Of a stretch of DNA of 64,000 bases, positions 1,466 through 58,817 are shown piece by piece. The stretch comes from Eledone cirrhosa. Taxonomy: Eukaryota. The translations under genes and the position numbers were made by a program. The notes below the pieces were generated by a model. It was not told the origin of the DNA, made no database searches, and worked only from the letters and a program-made list of their open reading frames with translations. The stretch spans positions 1-64,000 of the forward strand of contig CAXHJY010000892.1 in the NCBI GenBank assembly GCA_964016885.1, read 5' to 3'. The stretch's first letter is position 1, and the number at the start of each line of letters is the position of its first letter.

Positions 1466-1514
1466 TGATTAAAAACTTTTTTGTATAGCAAACCATGTAA
1501 ACCTTCTTTCCTGA

Positions 1515-1520
1515 TATATT

Positions 1521-1555
<35 letters not shown>

Positions 1556-1591
1556 ATGTTTATATATATATATGTTTATATATATATATTT

Positions 1592-1641
<50 letters not shown>

Positions 1642-1657
1642 TTATATATATATATAA

Positions 1658-1688
<31 letters not shown>

Positions 1689-1711
1689 TATATATTTACA
1701 TATATATATAA

Positions 1712-1742
<31 letters not shown>

Positions 1743-1927
1743 TATATATATATATTTATATATATATATTTATATATTTATATATATATATTTATATATA
1801 TATATTTATATATTTATATATATATATTTACATATATATATTTATATATTTATACACATATATATATATATTTATATATTTATATATATATATATATTCA
1901 TATATATATACATATATATATATATAC

Positions 1928-1974
<47 letters not shown>

Positions 1975-2180
1975 TATATATTTACACATATATATATATA
2001 TACCTACATATATATATTTATACACTTATACATATATTTATACATATATATGTATATATATATTAAAAAAATACATATATAAAAAATATATATATATAAA
2101 TATAAATATATATATATATATCCATACATAAACATATATATATATATATATACATTATATATATATATATAAATATATTT
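1515..2180. repeat. (TA)n-rich microsatellite
   Basis: Directly visible; gives a spurious YI-repeat ORF. Confidence 0.95.
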
Positions 2181-2527
2181 ATCATCATCATCATCATCAT
2201 TTCATTTTACGTCCACGTTTCCCCTCCTGCAAGGGTGGGACGGGAACCGACTCTGGCTCGACTTCCACAGCTGGACGCCCCTCCCAACACCAACCTCATT
2301 TACAGTGAGTGCTGGGTGCTTTTTTGCCGTGGCACCTCCACGACCACCCTGCAGCGGAATGATAGGGACCCCAGCCCCCATCATCTCACTTCCACAGCCG
2401 AGCAAACTGGAGCAATGTGAAACAAAGTGTCCTGCTCAAGGAAACAACACATCACCCGGTCCGAGAACTGAACTCACAACCCCTCGATTGCAAGGCCAAT
2501 GCTCCAACCACCAAGCCATGTGTCTCC
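2181..2527 (-). mobile_element. Full-length tRNA-derived SINE family 2 with RTE-derived tail; A-to-G hypermutated copy
   Basis: Minus-strand head GGAGACACATGGCTTGGTGG...GAGTTCAGTTCTC, body and tail shared with 38488-38663 and 58621-58817, (ATG)n tail. Confidence 0.88.
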
Positions 2528-2660
2528 ATAAATATATATATATATAAATATATATATATATAAATATATATATATATAAATATATATATATATAAATATC
2601 AGTAGGCATCTCTAACAAAATACAAATATATATATATATAAACATATAAATATATATAAA

Positions 2661-3335
2661 TACATTCATTTGATTTATTGATAATTTATCTCAGTGTCCC
2701 GAATCTTCCATATCGCAATTTTTCGGTCGTTTGGTTGATTGTAGACATATTCTACGTGTGACGGTATTTTAACGATAGTTATAGCTCTGATTTATTTGAA
2801 TTATGGAGCCCTCTGCCGCTCATCTCGAATTTTGTTTATCGTGAACTCGTGTGCCGATTTTTCGATACTCGATTATTCTACTATATTTAGCTCTAGACCT
2901 AGCTATTGACCAGTTAATTTTATTGTTCATTTTTTGTCGATTCTATTAAATGATGAATAGCTCCTGTTTATTTTAACATGTCTATTGAGCACTCTTATTC
3001 GATATGTGTTATTCCACATTTTCCCGAATATTTTTTGCGGATATAAAGGTTATCTCCCTTGCTGAAGTCCATGTGCGTATTTTCAGCCTGGGTTTTGTCT
3101 TTTCATTCGTTCGGACTAAAGCTCGTTGAAGAAGTAAATTTCCAGTCCCCCGTCGTCTGTAAGTCTTATATTTTTATGTGAGCTGATAGAGGACGGTTTA
3201 AGGATTTACAGAAACCCAAGAAGCTAGATATACCATCTCTCTAGTGGGTCCGGGTATGCTTTTTACATTCATTTGATTTATTGATAATTTATCTGAGTGT
3301 CCCGAATCTTCCATATCGCAATTTTTCGGTCGTTT
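2661..3335 (+). mobile_element. Non-coding 603-bp unit with 72-bp terminal direct repeat and a hammerhead motif (retrozyme-like or solo Penelope pLTR)
   Basis: 2661-2732 matches 3264-3335 with one mismatch; flanked by (TA)n; hammerhead at 3121-3255. Confidence 0.7.
3121..3255 (+). ncRNA. Type I hammerhead-like motif (core TTGAAGA, long stem II)
   Basis: gctcg-TTGAAGA-a gtaaattt..ccgtc..gacgg..ggatttac a-GAAAC cca..tgg GTC-cgggt. Confidence 0.55.
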
Positions 3336-4165: not shown

Positions 4166-5898
4166 TTTTTCGTCGACTTGGAGAAAGCCTTCGAAAGAGT
4201 CCCCCCTTCCATTATCTGGTGGGCTCTTAGAAAACTAGGTGTTGACGAATGGCTTGTGAGAGGTATACAAGCCATGTATAAAGAAACAGTCAGTAAGGTT
4301 AGAATTAACAACGAATATAGTGAAGAGTTTAGCGTAAAAGTTGGTGTCCATCAGGGCTCTGTTCTTAGCCCCCTACTATTTATTATTGCCCTTCAGGCTA
4401 TAACAGAGGAGTTGAAGACCGGCTGCCCATGGGAACTCCTATACGCAGATGGTCTAACGCTCATAGCTGAATCAATGACCGAACTAGAGAAGAAATTCCA
4501 AACATGGAAGCACGGCGTAGAATCAAAAGGCCTTAAAATTAACCTGGCTAAGACTAAAGTTCTAGTTTGTAGGAAAGAAAACAAGGCGGCGGTCCCATCT
4601 GGGAAATGGCCATGCTCAGTGTGTAGGAAAGGCGTAGGTAGAAAATCCATTTTATGTCCCAAATGCAAAGTATGGGTGCATAAAAGATGTAGTGGGATCA
4701 CAGATAAGCTAACTAAGAACATAGATTTTACATGTGGACGGTGCTCTGGTGCAATAAGTAGCAGCAAGTGCCCACAAAATACTAGCTCCTTCAACTGCGC
4801 AGAGGGTTCTATAGAAATAGTGGACAGCTTCCGTTACCTGGGTGACAAAATCAGCAGTGGGGGAGTGTGCTCTGAAAGTACAGTAGCTAGAGTCAGAACT
4901 GGATGGAAAAAGTTCAGAGAGCTTATACCACTATTAGCCGCTAGAGGGTTCTCCCTAAAAATGAAAGGCAGGTTATACGATGCCTGCATACGAACAGCAA
5001 TGCTGCATGGCAGTGAGACCTGGGCATTGTGTGCAGAGGATATATGCAGACTAGAGAGGAACGAAGCTTGCTTGCTCCGCTGGATGTGCAATAGTAATAT
5101 ACGTGAACGGCAAAGCATAAACGAACTAAGGAAAAAATTAGAAATAAGAGGGATCAGATGTTGTTTACTCGAGAGAAGGCTACGTTGGTACGGTCACGTG
5201 ATGCGCATGAAAGACGACAGCTGTATAACAAAGTGCAGGGCAATAAAGATAGACGGTAGCCACGGAATAGGCAGACCCAGAAAAACATGGGACGAGCTGA
5301 TAAATTCCGACCTCACACGCTTACACCTCTCCAAGACAATGTCACTGGACCGAGACCTTTGGCGGTACTCAGTAATAGAGAAGACCCGCCTTACCTAAAT
5401 ACAAAGTAAAAACCTACTACAGTCAGTAGGCATCTCTATCAAAACACACCCCCGTCCCACCACCTCCACCCCATCCACACCGCCCCTTTCAATGTAAAGT
5501 TATGTTGGTCCCACAACATCCAGGCCGAAACAAATGAGATCGTGTAGGTGTCACGACAAAAAAACTCATAGTCCACGCTGTAAATGTGGCCGTGTAGGCA
5601 ACACGGTAAAAACCTCCCAGCCCCACACTGTAAATGTGGTTGGTGTTAGGAAGGGCATCCAGCTGTAGAAAACCCGCCAGACAGTCCACGCTGTAATGTG
5701 GCCGTGTAGGCAACACGGTAAAAACCTCCCAGCCCCAAACTGTAAATGTGGTTGGTGTTAGGAAGGGCATCCAACTGTAGAAAACCCGCCAGACAGTCCT
5801 ATGCGAGCAAGACAACCACTCTTGCCTCAAGTGGGAAAACCCCCGTCCAAACCCATGCAAGCGTGGAACACGGACGCTAAACCTGATGATGATGATGA
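4166..5898 (+). mobile_element. RTE-clade LINE (family A), young 5'-truncated copy with uninterrupted RT C-terminal half (about 4167-5398)
   Basis: [25 protein letters not shown] (YADD mutated), [13 protein letters not shown]; about 113-bp tandem duplication in the 3' UTR (5570-5793); (GAT)n tail. Confidence 0.95.
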
Positions 5899-5989: not shown

Positions 5990-8982
5990 TCATCATCATC
6001 ATCATTTTACGTCCGCTTTTCCCTGCTTGCAAGGGTGGGACGAGTCTTATTCAGCACAGCATCTCTCCAATCGTCACGGTCCCTCGTCATCTCCACCGTC
6101 AGCTTCAATGATCTGAGGTCTGTTCTCACCACCTCCGCCCATGTTTTTCGTGGTCTACCTGTACCACGTCTTCCTTCAACTGGCATTTCCTGGCACTTCT
6201 TCACCCATCGGTCACCCTCCATGCGCATCACATGTCTATATCACCTCAGTCTCCTCTCCCGTACACTACATTCTATCTCTCTCAACACATTTATGCTGGG
6301 TCGTTCACGCACATTTACACTGCACATCCAACGGAGCATGCTTGCCTCATTTCTCTCCAGCCGTCGCATATCCTCTGCAGTTGCTGCCCATGTCTCACTA
6401 CCATGCAGAATCGCGCTCCTCACACAGGCATCATACAACCGGCCTTTTGTACGCAGGGAGAAGCCCTTCTTCGTCAACAGAGGAAGCAGCTCCCTAAACT
6501 TCTTCCAACCCGTCCTTATTCTGGATACTATGGCCTCAGAACACCCTCCTCCCATGTTAATCTGATCTCCTAGGTACCGGAAGCTATACACCACTTCTAT
6601 AGCGCCCTCATGCATTTGAAAAATGTGTCTATCAATGCGACTTCTACTGTCTAATTTCCCTGTACATCTACTGCATACATATTTCTCCCTACCTGTTAGT
6701 TTGCCTGCTCTTGTGTACCCAGGATCTGCATTGTGTGCATTTTATAGAATTTATGCCAGTTCCTTTTCTGCATATCGAACATGGCCATTTCCCTGACGGA
6801 ATTAGGGTTTTGTCCTCTTTTCTACTCATCAACACTTTTGTCTTAGCTAGGTTCACTCTCAGTCCGCTTGCTTCCAACTGCTGTTTCCATAGCCAGAATT
6901 TATTCTCTAGCTCCTCTACTGATTCTGCCAAATCGTCAGCATAGAGAAGTTCCCATGGACAGCCAGTCTTAAACTCCTCTGTTATGGCTTGGAGGACTAT
7001 AATGAACAAGAGCGGGCTGAGGACCGAACCCTGATGTACTCCTACTTGTATCTGGAATTCCTCACTAAACTCCATTCCTACCCTGACTTTACTGAGAGTA
7101 CCTCTGCACAAAGTTTGCACTGTCCTCACAAGCCATTTTTCAACACCTAGCTACCTTAGGGACCACCAGATGACAGATCGGAGTACCCTATCAAAGGCCT
7201 TCTCTAGATCAACAAAGGCTAAGTATAGTGGCTTATTCTTCTCTAAGAACCTCTCTTGCAATTGTCTCACCAAGAAGAGGGCATCTGTTGTACTCTTCCC
7301 AGCCACAAAACCAAACTGCATCTCATCTAGTTTGACCCTTTCTTTAATTAGTTGTGCTAAAATCCTTTCTGCCACTTTCATAACCTGATCTATCAGTTTT
7401 ATACCCCTATAATTGCTCCTCTCCAGAGCATCCCCTTTACCTTTGTAGCAATTTATGAGAATACTGCTGCACCAGTCTTTGGGTATGACACCACCATATA
7501 TAGCCTGATTGATGATGCGTGCAACCAGTTTAGTGCCTACGTCCCCTGATGCCTTCAGCATCTCAGCAACTATTCCCGATGGTCTGGCAGCCTTACCATT
7601 TTTCATTTCCCTAATCGCCTCTTGGACCCTATATTCATCAATCTCAATAGCTGGTCCCTCTGTCGGATCTACCAAGGGTAATTTCTCTCTCTCCCATTTG
7701 TTCTCCACATTCATCAGTCTCTCATAATGACATTTCCAGGCCTCCTTTTTCTGATCATTCGTGACACTAAGTACACCGGCATCATCCCGGACACATTTTT
7801 CTCCAACAACATCCTGATTTGCATTGACACACTGCCTTGCAATGTGGAACACCGCACGCCTCTGATCTTCCCGTCGCAGAACATTGGCAAACCTCCTACT
7901 CTCTGCCTCCATGCGTGCTAAGTACACCTGACGTCTAGCTTCTCTCTTAGTGGCTGTATATTCTTCCCTACTCCCACCCTTTTTCCAAGCCTTCCATGCT
8001 AGTGTTTTGTCTTTAATAGCCTTATCTACTGTGCTGTTCCACCACCAGGTCACTCTCTGTCTGGTTGGAGCTCTGCTCCAGCCACAAGTTTCATCAGTAG
8101 CCTGCAGCAGGTTGTCAAGTAAGAAATTCCATTTATTATCTATGTCATACGTCTCTAAATCGTCTTCTTTTTCGTCATATACATCTTGAAGGGCTTTCCT
8201 AAATTTGTATTTTAGTGAAAGGTCTTTTAGCTTCCAGACCTTTCTTCTCCACACCTTCCTATATGTCTCATTCCATCTCTTGCTTACTGAGATATCACTA
8301 ACAACTAACCTATGCTGTGGGGTACATTCTTCCCCAGGGTATGCCTTGGTATTAGTCACTATCTGCCTGTCCCGCTGCCTAACTAGTAAGAAGTTAATCT
8401 GGCTTATGTGCTCACCAGATTTGTAGGTTATTAGGTGATTGGCAGGTTTCTGGAAGTTTGTGTTGCAAATAGTCAATGTACCTGGATCACAAAATTCAAG
8501 AAGTCTCACTCCTTCTTCATTTCTTGAACCGTAACCGTGCCCACCATGTACCCCAGTGTAACCATCCTGGAGCTGTCCAACATGACCATTGAAGTCTCCT
8601 GCTAGCATAACGATGTCTCCGTCCTCTGTCATTGCGGTTGTTTGTAAAAGTTGCTCATAAAAGCAGTCTTTCTCATCTTTGCCTAGGCCTGCTTGGGGAG
8701 CATAGACCGAGATGATTGTCAGTAGTCTCCTGCCTACAACTAATCTAAGCTTAATTATTCGATTACTAATTCAAACTACCTCTATTGTCTTATTGATCCA
8801 TTTCTCAGCCAGGAAAATGCCTACTCCCCCTAACCCATCATCCTTACCTACCCAGAATAGCTTATAGCTAAGCCGTTTGCCTACGACTAGTCTCGCAGAG
8901 GCACCTCTCCATCTCACCTCTTGCACGCAGCACACACCCACCTGCCTTCTCTCCAGCATCTCCGCTGTTTCAGCAGATCTAC

Positions 8983-11601: not shown

Positions 11602-14540
11602 TTACCCCAATCGGGGTTGCCAAACGAACTTAAAGATAGGTTTTACGAGTCGCTAATGCACACTACTGCTCTAACAAACGACAATGACTTCCTAATCATT
11701 GCAGAAAATTTTAACGGACATGTAGGTAAACACCATGACAGCTTCTATTGAGGCCATGGGGTTGGCACAAGAAATGAAGAAGGCTTCTAGAATTCTGGGA
11801 CGCCAATGACATGTCGATATGTAACACATACTTTAAAAAACCCGACAACCACCTGATCACCTATAGATCAGAGGAGCATTCTAGTCAGATCGATTTTTAT
11901 CCTCATCAGAGGACGTGACAGATAGACGGTCGTAAACACAAAAGCCTTCCCTAGTGTGGAATGTACCTTCCAACATAACTTAGTTGTCAGCGACCTCACG
12001 GTCAGAACTAGGCGAACCTGGAAACAGAAGCCAACCTGGAGAAGAAAGATTGGAAGCTGAAAGACCCCTCAGTCAGTAACAGATTTAAAGATATTTTAGT
12101 CAACGCCCATGACAGTAAAGAAGAACAGATACAGACATTCAATGTAGAAGAGCACTGGGAGTTCCTAAAAAATAACTTACTAAAGGTGACGGATGAGATC
12201 TGTGGCTGGAGTAAGACCTCCGGCAGGAGGAGAGTGACTTGTTGGTAGAACAATAAGGTAGATGAGGCAGTTAGGCCAAGAGACAGGCATGAATAGAATG
12301 GAAGAATGGGGGAAGCAGGGTACGTTACATAGAGACCAGGAGGGAAGCTAGGTGACAAGTATACTTAGCTAGGAGGGAAGCAGAGGATAGAAAATTCAAG
12401 CATGTCTTGCAACGTGAGGACCAGAAACAGGTGTTCAAGATTGCGAGGCAGTGTCTCAGAGAGAATTCTGGTGTCATTAGAGAGAAGTGTATCCAGAATG
12501 ATAAAGATGAGCTTGTCCTCATAAGTGCTGAGAAGAAGGATGCATGGTAGAGCCATTATGAAAGATTACTAAAAGAGGAGAATGCATGGGAAGAAGCGAC
12601 CCTACCCCAAGTAAACACTATAGAGAGGCCAGCAGTACAAGTCAGCAGCAGTGTAGTAAGTAAAGCAAATATGAGATATGAAGACTGGGAAGGCATCTGG
12701 TCCATTGGGTATGGGCTGCCGAGATGCTGAAGGCATCTGGGTCGGTAGGTCACACCATAACTACACGTATTGTTAACCAGGTAATACTAGAGGGTCTCAT
12801 ACCAAAGGATTGGTGTAGCAGCATCGTCAACTGCTACAAGGGTAAAGGTGATGTACTAGATAGAGGAAACTATAGAGGTATAAAACTGATGGTCCAGGTC
12901 ATGAAAGTAACAGAATAGCACAATTGATTAGGGACCGGGTGAAACTAGATGAGATGCAATTTGGGTTTGTGCCAGGAAAAGGCACCACTGATGCCCTCTT
13001 CCTTGTGAGGCAGTTACAGGAAAAGTACCTAGCTAAAAGTAAGCTGCTCTACTTGGCATTCGTCGATCTGGAGAAAGCCTTTGACAGAATTCCCCGTGCT
13101 ATAATCTGATGGGCTCTTAGAAAACTAGGAGTAGATGAATGGCTTGTGAAAGCTGTACAAGCCATGTATAAGGGGAGTAGTCAGAAAAGTTAGGATTAGC
13201 AATGACTATACCGAATTTAGCATACAAGTCGGTGTCCACCAGGGCTCTGTTCTTAGCCCTCTCCTGTTCATCATAGTTCTGCAGGCAATAACGGAGGAGT
13301 TTAAGACCGGATGCCCATGGGAACTCCTGTATGCAGATGACCTTGCACTTATAGCTGAATCTATGGTAGAACTAGAGAAGAAAGGGTCTTAAAGTTAACC
13401 AGACAAAGACTAAGGTCCTTGTAAGTAGACGAGAAAACAATCAGGGAAATGGCCTTGCTCAGTATGTAGGAAAGGTGTAGTTAGGAACTCCATACTCTTC
13501 CCCAAATGCAAACAATGGGTACACAAGAGATGTAGCGGGATCTCAGGAAGCTTAACTAAGAATGTAGGCTTCACATGTAGCAGCTCTGCTGGGACAGTAA
13601 GTAGCAAACAGCCACAGGAAACAAGTACCACCAGACTCTGAGAGGGCTCTGTTGAAACAGGAGACAGCTTCTGCTACCTAAGTGACCGAATTAGCAGCGG
13701 AGGTGGGTGTTCGGAAAGTACAATAACTAGGGTAAGAACGGGAGCTACTTCCACTGCTAGCTGCAAAAGGCTTTACCCTCAAAATGAAAGGCAGACTGTA
13801 TGATGCGTGTATACGAACATCAATGTTACATGGTAGTGAGACCTGGGTGCTGGCTATAGAAGGCTTGCGTAGATTAGAAAAAAATGAAGCCTGCATGCTC
13901 CGATGGATGTGTAATAGTAATATACGCGAATGGCAAAACATAAATGAATAGAGAGAGAGACTGAGCATAAGAGGAATCAAATGCTGTGTGCAGGAGAGGC
14001 GGTTGCGTTGGTATGGACATGTGATGCGTATGAAGGATGACAGCTGCATAAAAAGGTGCAGAGCACTAGAAGTTGATGGAAACCGCGGAGTGGGGAGACC
14101 CAAGATACCTGGGATGAGGTGATAAAAGCCGACCATACCCAATTACACCTCTCAAAGGCGATAACACACGACCGTGACCTCTGGCGTCATGCAGTAATAC
14201 AGAAGACCCCCCCCCCCCCATGGGTACAAGCTGAAGCATATTGACAATATGCCCCCATACCCTCTCACTGCAAAGTGGTCGTGGAGGTGACATGGCAAAA
14301 AAGTACCCAGCCCACACTAATGTGGACGTGTAGGCACCACGGAAAAAAGCACCCAGCACTCACTGTAAATGAGGTTGGTGTTAGGAAGGACATCTAGCTG
14401 TAGAAATCAAGCCAGAATCAGTTCCCGTATGAGCAAGACAAGGTCAGCCGACCGGCTACTGCGCACAACAGGACAACCCGTCTAACCCATGCTAGAGTGG
14501 AAGAACGGACGTAAAACAGTGATAATAATGATGATGATGA
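11602..14540 (+). mobile_element. RTE-clade LINE (family C), decayed, EN to 3' tail
   Basis: Fragment ORFs NCYKGKGD..NYRGIKL and QFGFVPGKGTTDA..DLEKAFD; 3' UTR ending CGGACGTAAAA..(GAT)n. Confidence 0.92.
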
Positions 14541-37989: not shown

Positions 37990-38950
37990 GGGTTTGTTTT
38001 TATATTTTCTATGATACTGGCCTCTCTCTCTGCCCTCTCCTTTTCATGGGAAAGTTTAAGTGTAGTTTCAATTTCAAGCAGTGCCTGTTTCAAATGGGGT
38101 TCTTTCTTGTTCTTCTGTTGTGCATCTACCAGGTTTGAGATCTTTGTTCTTCATCTCATGAGGATTTTCCTGTCTCTGGGAATAAAAATGTTGTCTCTGT
38201 TGGCCTTTTCTTCCAGGATAAATTTACAGCATATGTTTTGTATTGTCATGAAATATTGAAATTGCATGTTGGTGTCTTGCATCATCTTTACGTTATGGAT
38301 GAGCACCATGTTATTTGTAAAGCAGAGATCCAGGACATTCTCTTCTCTTGTTGGGTGTAGTACTACATGTTCTATAAACAGCCTTCTTCCATTTTCTGAG
38401 GCTATCTTCAAACTTACCTTCATGACTAGGGGTATTTGGTAGCTGATATGTGACACATATTAACCATTTTGATTTGCTTTAAATATACCACTGCAAAGTG
38501 GTCGTGGAGGTGCCGCGGCAAAAAAGCACCCAGCACTCACTGTAAATAACGTTGGTGTTAGGAAAGGCATCCAGCTGTAGAAATCAAGCCAGCATCAGTT
38601 CCCGTCCCACCCTTGCAAGCAGGGAAAAAACGGACGTAAAAATGAAATGATGATGAAATGATACTATTAGCATGTCGCAGACCAAGTTGGAATGTGACAA
38701 CGATATCTTCAGGGTGTACAAAGCAACTCTACCATGACTTCTCTTCATCCAGTCAGTGCAAAATACAATTTACTTTGGTATGTGTATTTCTGCATCTGCT
38801 ATGCTAGCTCTCAGGTGAGGCCTCTGACATTTAGTAGTAGCACTGATGTGACATTTTGGGTGGCTGCTGATATGGCATTTGTGTGGGTATCAGTGGTAGC
38901 CACCCTGGGTCCTTTATTTGTGGTGGTTACACATGTATATTAAGTAAGGA
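37990..38950 (-). mobile_element. Degraded CR1-like LINE endonuclease region, interrupted by a SINE
   Basis: SVLLLNVRGL, HPTREENVLDLCFTN, IPRDRKILMR. Confidence 0.65.
38488..38663 (+). mobile_element. SINE family 2, 3' part (unedited comparator)
   Basis: GTTAGGAAAGGCATCCAGCTGTAGAAATCAAGCC...CCCTTGCAAGCAGGG..CGGACGTAAA. Confidence 0.85.
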
Positions 38951-55841: not shown

Positions 55842-57067
55842 TATATGTATGTGTGTATATATATATATATACACACAGCAGGGAAAAGCAGATGTAAAAT
55901 GATGATGATGCTGATGATGATATATATATATATATACACACACACACACGTATATGTATGTATATGTCTGTGATTGGAAAGGAAACCAATCACACACACA
56001 CACACACACTACTTCAAGTATAGGTCATATTGTTTCTCAACAGTTTACCATTCTCTATAGTGGCACCTAAGATTAAGCATGATTATTAGATGCCATAGAA
56101 AGGCAAAGTTTTGAGGGTATTCTGTAGTTGTTATATTAAATGTGGGATTTTGAAAGCTGAGGATAGCAAGACAAGTGATTCAAAAATGGAACTTTGTAAA
56201 GTTCTCGTTTTCGGTGTGTGTGAATGTGTCTGGCTTAGAAAAGGTACACTGTATCCCTGCATGTTGTAAAAATCAGTTAACCCTTTAACATTTAAACCAG
56301 TCGTATCTGGCCAGAATTCCCTCACCTCTTTCTGTTCAAACTGGCTGTAACCAGCTGCTCATACTGAGGTTAAGGTATTGTTCTCAACATACGTAATATG
56401 AAAATCTCATAGATTCATTATTATTTGAGATAATTTTGTGAGTTATAACCTTTACTATAAAAATCATCATCACCGTTTTACGTCCATTCTTCCACACTAG
56501 CATGGGTTAGACGGGTTGTCCTGTTGTGGGCAACGCCAGGTCAAGTGACTATGTCTTGCTCATAGAGAACTGATTTTGGCTTGATTTCTACAGCTGGATG
56601 CCCTTCCTAACACCAACCTCATTTACAGTGAGTACTGGGTGCTTTTTTTTACCGTGGCGCCTACACAACTGAAAATATAACAGTATATATAGAGTAATGT
56701 AAATGCCAAAGGGTTAAAAGAGTTGGTGCCAGGAAAGGCACCCAGCTGTTATACCAGTATGGAATGGTTCATGTAAAAATGATGATGATGGTAGTATAAT
56801 TGTAAATCTGAGCACTCGTAACGAGGACAGATGTTGGAAAAATGGAGCCACACAGATGCACGCTCAAATCTTTATGTCATTGGCTCTGCTGGGTCTCACC
56901 ACAATTTCTGTGCAATAAGAAGAGGATTATTCATCCCAGTGCACCATGGAAGACAACACAAGATGAACATTCTGTCTACCACTGCCACATACATAACACT
57001 GTCAATCATTTTTGGGAAGAGGGGAAATCATTTAAAACGACCCCAGTGCATATGTTACTGGTACTTT

Positions 57068-58430: not shown

Positions 58431-58620
58431 ATAATTATTACTACTACTTAGCCCAATGTTTAACACAGCGAATAAGTAATCTTCAATTACGCACACACAC
58501 AAGTGTGTGTGTGTAATGCATGAAATTGCATGCTAGAAGGTGGCTGAATCGATAAAAATGCAGTTGTATGTTCAGCTTATGTAACTTTTTCTGCTAATAC
58601 TATATATATCATGTATCATA

Positions 58621-58817
58621 TCATCATTTTACGTCCGCTTTTCCCTGCTTGCAAGGGTGGGACGGGAACTGATTCTGGCTTGATTTCTACAGCTGGATGC
58701 CCTTCCTAACACCAACCTCATTTTACAGTGAGTGCTGGATGCTTTTTTGCCGTGGCACCTGCACGACCACTTTGCAGTGGTATGATAAGGACCCCAGTCC
58801 CTATCATCTCATTTCTA
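58621..58817 (-). mobile_element. SINE family 2, 5'-truncated (unedited comparator)
   Basis: Aligns with 2203-2394. Confidence 0.88.

Follow-up and report, generated by a model that had tools for sequence, protein, structure and literature searches.

A SINE copy dense in one-strand A-to-G changes as a probable DNA record of ADAR hyper-edited RNA in Eledone cirrhosa

We describe a full-length SINE of 335 nt in the genome of Eledone cirrhosa (positions 2195..2529, minus strand), in which 27 of the 93 A's are changed to G and only three other differences are present when its columns are compared with the majority of the 29 best genomic matches of its family. We consider it highly probable that this copy was made from double-stranded RNA hyper-edited by ADAR and reverse-transcribed into the germline, a route in which the SINE often travels as a passenger of longer transcripts. 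A-to-I editing is commonly taken to leave the DNA untouched. All positions without a locus name refer to the window, that is, the whole stretch of 64,000 nt that was analysed (G000:C919:1-64000), which belongs to an assembly of 3.0 Gb in 1796 contigs. The preliminary description of this DNA had proposed that an ADAR-edited SINE transcript was retrotransposed, and the core of that proposal is supported by the A-to-G load of the copy, the ADAR-like context of the changes and 12 more loci of the same kind. The nature of the RNA has to be revised, as it would often have been an inverted pair of SINEs or a longer transcript of a repeat in which the SINE lay in reverse.

Results

The A-to-G sites of the window copy, which read as T-to-C on the plus strand, lie at 2224, 2227, 2248, 2251, 2259, 2262, 2266, 2276, 2281, 2285, 2348, 2349, 2355, 2375, 2379, 2389, 2393, 2399, 2403, 2423, 2432, 2462, 2468, 2482, 2483, 2505 and 2512, and the (ATG)n tail at 2181..2194 (minus strand) is unedited. 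The 29 best-matching copies carry only 2-7 changes each. In 23 ordinary copies, which were picked off an edit-tolerant pattern and four of which look like two duplicated pairs, the A-to-G background was 18 of 1950 A's (0.9% per A), giving P(>=27 of 93) = 1e-32. Among the three remaining differences, G7A is common in the family and the other two fall at the variable 3' end; with a single G>A in the whole element, no APOBEC-type load of G>A on the sense strand was found. Compared with the unedited A's, the edited ones are rarely preceded by G (1/27 against 21/66, p=0.003), and they are more frequently followed by G (15/27 against 14/66, p=0.003) and preceded by T (8/27 against 3/66, p=0.002).

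Unedited siblings in the same window indicate that A is the ancestral state. Against the 5'-truncated sibling at about 58615..58817 (minus strand), 16 T-to-C changes on the plus strand were counted over 201 aligned columns (58615-58815), together with a single C-to-T that lies in the ATC tail and none in the body. The preliminary description had reported the same 16 changes and no C-to-T relative to 58621-58817, which is correct for the body of the element but too low as a count of edits, since 11 more are located in the 5' half that this sibling lacks. Its statement that A is ancestral also agrees with the partial siblings at about 38485..38656 (plus strand), at about 14266..14428 (plus strand; 14268-14428 in this comparison) and at 56567..56669 (minus strand), all of which carry A where they overlap, and its figure of 15 changed A's out of 16 without a 5' G becomes 26 out of 27 on the full element (p=0.003). 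The neighbouring repeat at 2660-3335 shows no A-to-G skew, with 5 mixed differences in 675 columns.

A central tract at 2286..2347 (minus strand), which had been noticed as untouched from the beginning, is edited at 0 of its 16 A's, compared with 27 of 77 elsewhere in the SINE (p=0.005, with tract bounds that were chosen after the fact). Because the same tract is edited in two other copies, L074 and L075, it is not intrinsically protected, and pairing with a SINE variant that has a tandem duplication could have spared it in the window copy. By eye, two motifs at 2518-2508 and 2473-2465 (minus strand) resemble the A- and B-boxes of Pol III promoters when set against the general box consensus. 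A conserved A has become G in both of them, at 2512 in the A-box-like and at 2468 in the B-box-like motif, so that the window copy is likely inactive. ARAGORN detected no tRNA at the window SINE or in the four loci scanned.

The original proposal implied a tail of copies with A-to-G changes only, and targeted searches of the genome yielded 12 further hypermutated loci, comprising two sense-only, six antisense-only and four inverted-pair loci. Search patterns that required G in place of favoured A's returned 3, 6, 3 and 4 hits, and patterns that required C in place of T returned 3 and 4. Four more loci came from a DNA search queried with one antisense locus, and the count of 13 hypermutated loci, window copy included, is a lower bound. 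The sense-only loci are L075 (31 of 74 A's edited) and L076, a member of another subfamily (19 of 25 substitutions are A-to-G against L052). The antisense-only loci are L072 (27/76), L073 (17/23 and 17/36 in the aligned parts), L092 (51/82), L131 (17 of 21 differences), L133 (9 of 20 differences) and L134 (8 T-to-C among 20 substitutions against L052), the last two being the weakest counted. The inverted pairs are L074 (28/77 and 23/57), the fold-back L077 (7/72 and 6/29), L078 (6/40 and 10/48) and L132 (15 and 13 edits). Pattern hits with only 2-4 A-to-G changes (L047, L050, L052, L053 and L056) were left out of the count of edited loci. Four of these, L047, L053, L056 and L052, yielded SINE variants that carry an internal tandem duplication around SINE positions 174-231, as well as a second subfamily distinguished by its 3' end.

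As a control, a G>A pattern gave 6 hits, none of which was hypermutated, this control being less sensitive than the A-to-G patterns. At most 6 G>A were present in L068, the full-length copy that could be scored, and the other hits were older copies or copies of other families, with L067 giving no alignment of 80 nt or more. When 106 distinct copies of at least 200 nt were compared, G>A reached a maximum of 7 and C>T a maximum of 6, while 3 copies had 12 or more A>G and 4 had 12 or more T>C, in a set that is biased by including the targeted finds.

The arrangement and context of the changes point to a double-stranded RNA substrate. In all four inverted pairs (L074, L077, L078 and L132), both arms are changed from A to G on one physical strand. 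In the sense arm of L077, 7 of 20 A's are edited inside the hairpin compared with 0 of 52 outside (p=5e-5), and since the two arms carry different edits, the hairpin is older than the editing. For the pooled loci, which leave out L076 and L131-L134 and were found with search patterns that themselves favoured such sites, the rates on the edited strand by 5' neighbour were T.60, A.38, C.20 and G.09 in sense segments (p=3.5e-6), and T.67, A.59, C.35 and G.18 in antisense segments (p=5e-7), where 14 of 76 A's were edited after a 5' G and 31 of 46 after a 5' T. A motif with the same neighbour preference has been published for hyper-edited RNA (PMC4365171). The preliminary description had set its reading against antisense copies that were equally frequent and free of ADAR context. 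Antisense copies are indeed at least as common as sense copies, but on their own edited strand they keep the ADAR 5' preference, though without the preference for a 3' G (31/65 against 120/286, p=0.41) that is seen in sense segments (p=1.4e-6).

The deaminase domain PF02137 was found above cut-off in four genomic regions, which are taken as ADAR-family genes and may include some of ADAT or ADAD type. One of them, L135 (G000:C6:13644405-13646174), carries an ADAR-family deaminase domain within a single open frame of 700 aa; CHAE and PCG motifs are present, and the two matched PF02137 halves are about 800 nt apart. The three others, multi-exon or partial, are on C1 and C25. For the window copy no inverted SINE partner was found, and the inverted copy located 1 kb from L075 is unedited. 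The SINE's own fold is not favoured as a substrate, as its prediction, made with no shuffle control, gives only short imperfect stems. The fold-back SINEs in L077 (4771-5106) and L078 (5054-5360) have their junction or end at an internal palindrome (SINE 146-172), and this position suggests hairpin-driven template switching. Inverted copies of the end of one young RTE-type LINE, 98.8% identical to each other, bracket the edited SINE at 1-653 and 5007-5660 and are not hyper-edited.

The edited loci also retain traces of the route into DNA. In each of the five loci that are truncated (L072, L074, L075, L077 and L132), the loss is 5' with respect to the edited strand; the window copy has its full length, with no 5' truncation. 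Edits lie beyond the surviving partner arm in L074 (13 of 33 A's there) and in L132 (10 of 13 edits), as though only part of a longer RNA had been copied. In L073, an inversion of the 5' part splits the SINE at position 137/138, and its edits, which are on opposite physical strands, fall on one original strand. The 5' truncations, the edits past the partner arm and the inversion all fit reverse transcription from the 3' end. L078 has no SINE 3' tail at either end, and thus tail-primed insertion alone is insufficient. At the window copy no target-site duplication and no empty allele were found; both of its ends merge into (TA)n, so that a target-site duplication is not readable, and no allelic copy of the flank was present among the top matches (the flank is a repeat with best hits of 95-98%).

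The 3' end of the window SINE (2195..2242, minus strand) is 94% identical over 49 nt to a LINE fragment at 5994-6042, and judging from this likeness the family of that fragment is the likely partner supplying the reverse transcriptase. Upstream and on the same strand as the SINE lies an unedited tandem 5' monomer of about 610 nt from an endonuclease-RT LINE (2660..3335, minus strand), which may have served as a read-through promoter. This monomer occurs alone and in tandem arrays genome-wide, and also at G000:C2:141471379-141474971. At L075 and L078, the LINE that lies upstream of the SINE in both is unedited (2 A>G in 2516 columns), and unrelated sequence intervenes between it and the SINE; these two observations give no support to a LINE 3' transduction. 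At L078:1369-4353, a 995-aa open frame encodes an RTE-type LINE with endonuclease, RT and PHD finger.

A non-coding tandem repeat of 630 nt is found beside all six antisense-only loci as well as L076 and L132 (8 of the 13 edited loci), half of these eight, and three of the six antisense-only ones, having been retrieved with a query that included a portion of this repeat. It is oriented forward on the edited strand in all eight loci, with an additional inverted unit upstream in L072, and it is present in 4 of 9 pattern-found loci compared with 2 of 29 background loci (p=0.02). The layout of repeat, (TA)n and antisense SINE also exists in unedited form in four loci (L099-L102), and L099 has three SINE variants and the layout in common with L092. 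Compared with the unedited sister L099/L128, which sits on another chromosome, L092 shows A-to-G at 52 of 82 A's in the SINE and at 4 of 167 in the adjoining repeat unit. We infer that the SINE was carried backwards in a transcript of the 630-nt repeat and paired with sense SINE RNA.

The 39 copies of the 630-nt repeat comprise 19 full, 14 5'-truncated, 4 3'-truncated and 2 truncated at both ends, and they form 5'-truncated tandems and inversions in (TA)n. In L076 and L093 the repeat adjoins a Penelope-like ORF, in opposite relative orientations; this ORF is recognised by a weak RVT_1 match, HTH_animal clusters and a GIY-YIG-like motif seen by eye that had no Pfam hit. The 630-nt unit contains no CTGANGA core of a hammerhead, and 150 of 217 Rfam matches included no hammerhead, just microsatellite-driven miRNA matches below cut-off. 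Since it is linked to the ORF in opposite orientations and is devoid of the hammerhead core, this non-coding repeat is no more than a candidate for a Penelope-like pLTR.

Some of the (TA)n microsatellites are skewed as well. Downstream of the window SINE tail, base counts of the (TA)n at 1514..2180 (minus strand) gave 21 C and 1 G on the plus strand for 1801-2180, which means G on the edited strand, and 1 C and 2 G for 1514-1800. This tract might possibly be an edited (UA)n extension of the same RNA as the window SINE, and the LINE 5' monomer upstream together with the G-leaning (TA)n downstream gives a faint hint of a longer transcript. Of 10 skewed TA flanks of edited copies, 9 have more G than C on the edited strand; among unedited copies the figure is 25 of 56 (p=0.013, the flanks being non-independent). 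In the 23 (TA)n tracts located just 3' of the 630-nt repeat in L062-L133, 177 G and 5 C were counted on the forward strand of the repeat, with 18 tracts leaning to G and none to C. Cumulative editing of self-pairing (UA)n could explain this G content, as could an inherited trait of the family.

Sequences from outside the assembly were also compared with the window copy. At a likeness threshold of 97%, a 75-nt contig of unrecorded type from run X2 proved identical to the window copy over 2228-2295, a stretch that includes 8 edits; its first 7 letters do not fit, and run X4 of the same sample has no depth there. Run X1 has a 60-nt contig, again of unrecorded type, with one difference at this threshold, and the RAD DNA run X21 contained only partial reads of other copies, reading T at 2285 and 2432. 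The window is on the small contig C919, with the edited SINE 2.2 kb from the contig start, and of the 12 other edited loci, 11 are placed on contigs of chromosome scale. In L049 and L064, runs of G that editing had created later became longer, a change that requires DNA replication.

Discussion

The route that we favour would consist of a few steps. A SINE RNA would pair either with SINE RNA of opposite sense or with an inverted SINE arm located on its own transcript, and ADAR would convert many of its A's to inosine. The reverse transcriptase of a retrotransposon, starting from the 3' end, would read inosine as G and often stop early or invert, whereby the 5' partner arm would be shortened or lost. 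The copy would then be inherited and age as DNA. Antisense copies would arise by the same route when the SINE rides backwards in a longer transcript, here that of the 630-nt tandem repeat with its Penelope-like structure.

Among other explanations, the replacement of an existing copy by cDNA of an edited transcript, through gene conversion or RNA-templated repair and with no new insertion, seems unlikely to us, and is the least unlikely of them. It would suit L078, which has no 3' tail, L077, whose edits match a hairpin that the locus itself can form, and the window copy, where the junctions with (TA)n hide any target-site duplication; however, the 5' truncation polarity in 5/5 loci and the L073 inversion, the edits past the surviving partner arm in L074 and L132, and the unedited sister of L092 on another chromosome all argue against it. 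A more improbable idea is direct deamination of DNA by ADAR or a different adenine deaminase, acting on R-loops or on the cDNA:RNA hybrid that exists during insertion. The six antisense-only copies are what edited first-strand cDNA would be expected to leave, they lack the 3' G preference, and ADARs are described as editing DNA in hybrids in model substrates (PMC12925331). During insertion, however, such editing cannot yield a sense-strand copy like that in the window, nor can it account for changes in both arms that share one strand and stay within an RNA-type hairpin (L077), and the presence of the 630-nt repeat along the edited strand in 6/6 antisense-only loci (3/6 from the repeat-holding query) speaks for an RNA route.

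An assembly artefact, produced by polishing with RNA reads or by base-calling bias, is slightly less probable again. The position of the site, 2.2 kb from the start of a small contig, would be in line with it, as would edits limited to a hairpin, which RNA reads of such a locus would show, and no raw DNA read over the window-copy edits was found in the RAD run X21 that was looked at. Against this stand the chromosome-scale contigs of 11 of the 12 other loci, the clean neighbouring repeats, the expanded G runs, the exact match over 8 edits in the outside X2 contig of unrecorded type, and L073, where an artefact would need edits on opposite strands around the inversion. The idea of an old or separate G-rich subfamily, or of chance divergence, has a negligible probability. 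The window copy does have 16 of 26 edits in common with L075 and 18 of 26 with L074, but each edited copy has 8-15 edits of its own, a member of another subfamily (L076) is changed at these same sites, and only three changes in the window SINE are other than A-to-G. The preliminary description had pointed to an ancestral subfamily with exactly these G's as a danger to its reading; the best other copy among 40 scored of 5280 candidates is 92% identical to the window SINE, none of them exceeds this value, and together with the private edits this speaks strongly against such a subfamily. We therefore read the sites in common between copies (up to 18) as hot spots rather than as signs of descent.

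With the route through hyper-edited RNA as the preferred explanation, several consequences would follow. RNA editing would be a heritable source of mutation, and each copy would preserve, from one molecule, both the germline editing and the hairpin on which it acted. The action of ADAR on retrotransposing RNA in germ cells, the possibility that edited copies are dead on arrival and the shaping of microsatellites by editing have now become testable, and copies of this kind would mislead both repeat dating and RNA-editing calls. The preliminary description had also suggested that editing may be a way to disable SINE copies. Both Pol III box-like motifs are hit in the window copy, which makes its inactivity probable, but 13 loci among at least 20,978 family copies with an intact 5' motif hardly amount to bulk silencing, and editing thus appears to be a rare by-product rather than the main brake on SINEs. 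The effect is rare and therefore probably matters little for genome evolution, unless the lead on microsatellites is borne out. In that wider proposal, which we find somewhat doubtful, ADAR editing would be an ongoing germline mutagen of repeats, with longer retroelement transcripts cycling SINEs and (UA)n through editing and reinsertion and leaving fossils on either strand as well as TG-interrupted (TA)n on the RNA strand. We found no report of ADAR-type A-to-G copies of SINEs or LINEs in a genome, judging mostly by titles and the openings of abstracts, and an earlier mention is possible. Carmi et al. 2011 and Knisbacher & Levanon 2015 (Ann NY Acad Sci) may discuss the idea.

Several known systems resemble parts of what is described here. 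In plant mitochondria and kinetoplastids, edited RNA is written back into DNA by retroprocessing of edited mRNA, as we propose for the window copy, although those cases involve other editing chemistries and organelle genes instead of ADAR and nuclear repeats. The hyper-edited RNA clusters attributed to ADAR (Porath et al. 2014, PMC4365171; for squid, Albertin et al. 2022, PMC9068888), as presented there, have in common with our loci dense A-to-G changes on one strand, depletion of G upstream and its enrichment downstream, and inverted SINE pairs and hairpins, but that pattern was seen in RNA reads whereas ours is in the genome assembly; in squid RNA, repeat-directed editing has been described (PMC9068888). 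For the 630-nt repeat, the pseudo-LTR tandems of Penelope-like elements (Craig et al., PMC8557442) are similar in their 5'-truncated partial tandems, inverted 5' copies and (TA)n targeting, and differ in that our repeat is non-coding and the orientation of its adjacent ORF inconsistent. The restriction of L1 by ADAR1 has been reported as editing-independent (PMC12925331, PMC5974252). The nearest precedent is given by avian retroviruses (Rous-associated virus U3 and an inverted repeat of avian leukosis virus), in which ADAR-type RNA edits, at up to about 50% of the A's in an inverted repeat, were fixed by reverse transcription according to a review (PMC12925331); those are infectious retroviruses without carrier elements, whereas here the copies are germline SINEs. 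Finally, LTR retrotransposons and ERVs edited by APOBEC (Knisbacher & Levanon, PMC4866542; Zaranek et al., PMC2873906) are, like our loci, deaminase-hypermutated copies fixed in the genome, in that case of vertebrates, and recognisable by strand bias and motif. In contrast, they show G>A from cytidine deamination of the cDNA of vertebrate LTR elements, while the copies here show A>G with an ADAR motif in a non-LTR SINE and in both orientations. The APOBEC-type screen, as described in these papers, covered LTRs and DNA transposons only, with invertebrates at noise level (PMC4866542, PMC2873906). If our reading is right, the window copy and its relatives would be direct evidence of hyper-edited RNA entering an animal germline genome, and would form the ADAR counterpart of the APOBEC-edited endogenous retroviruses.
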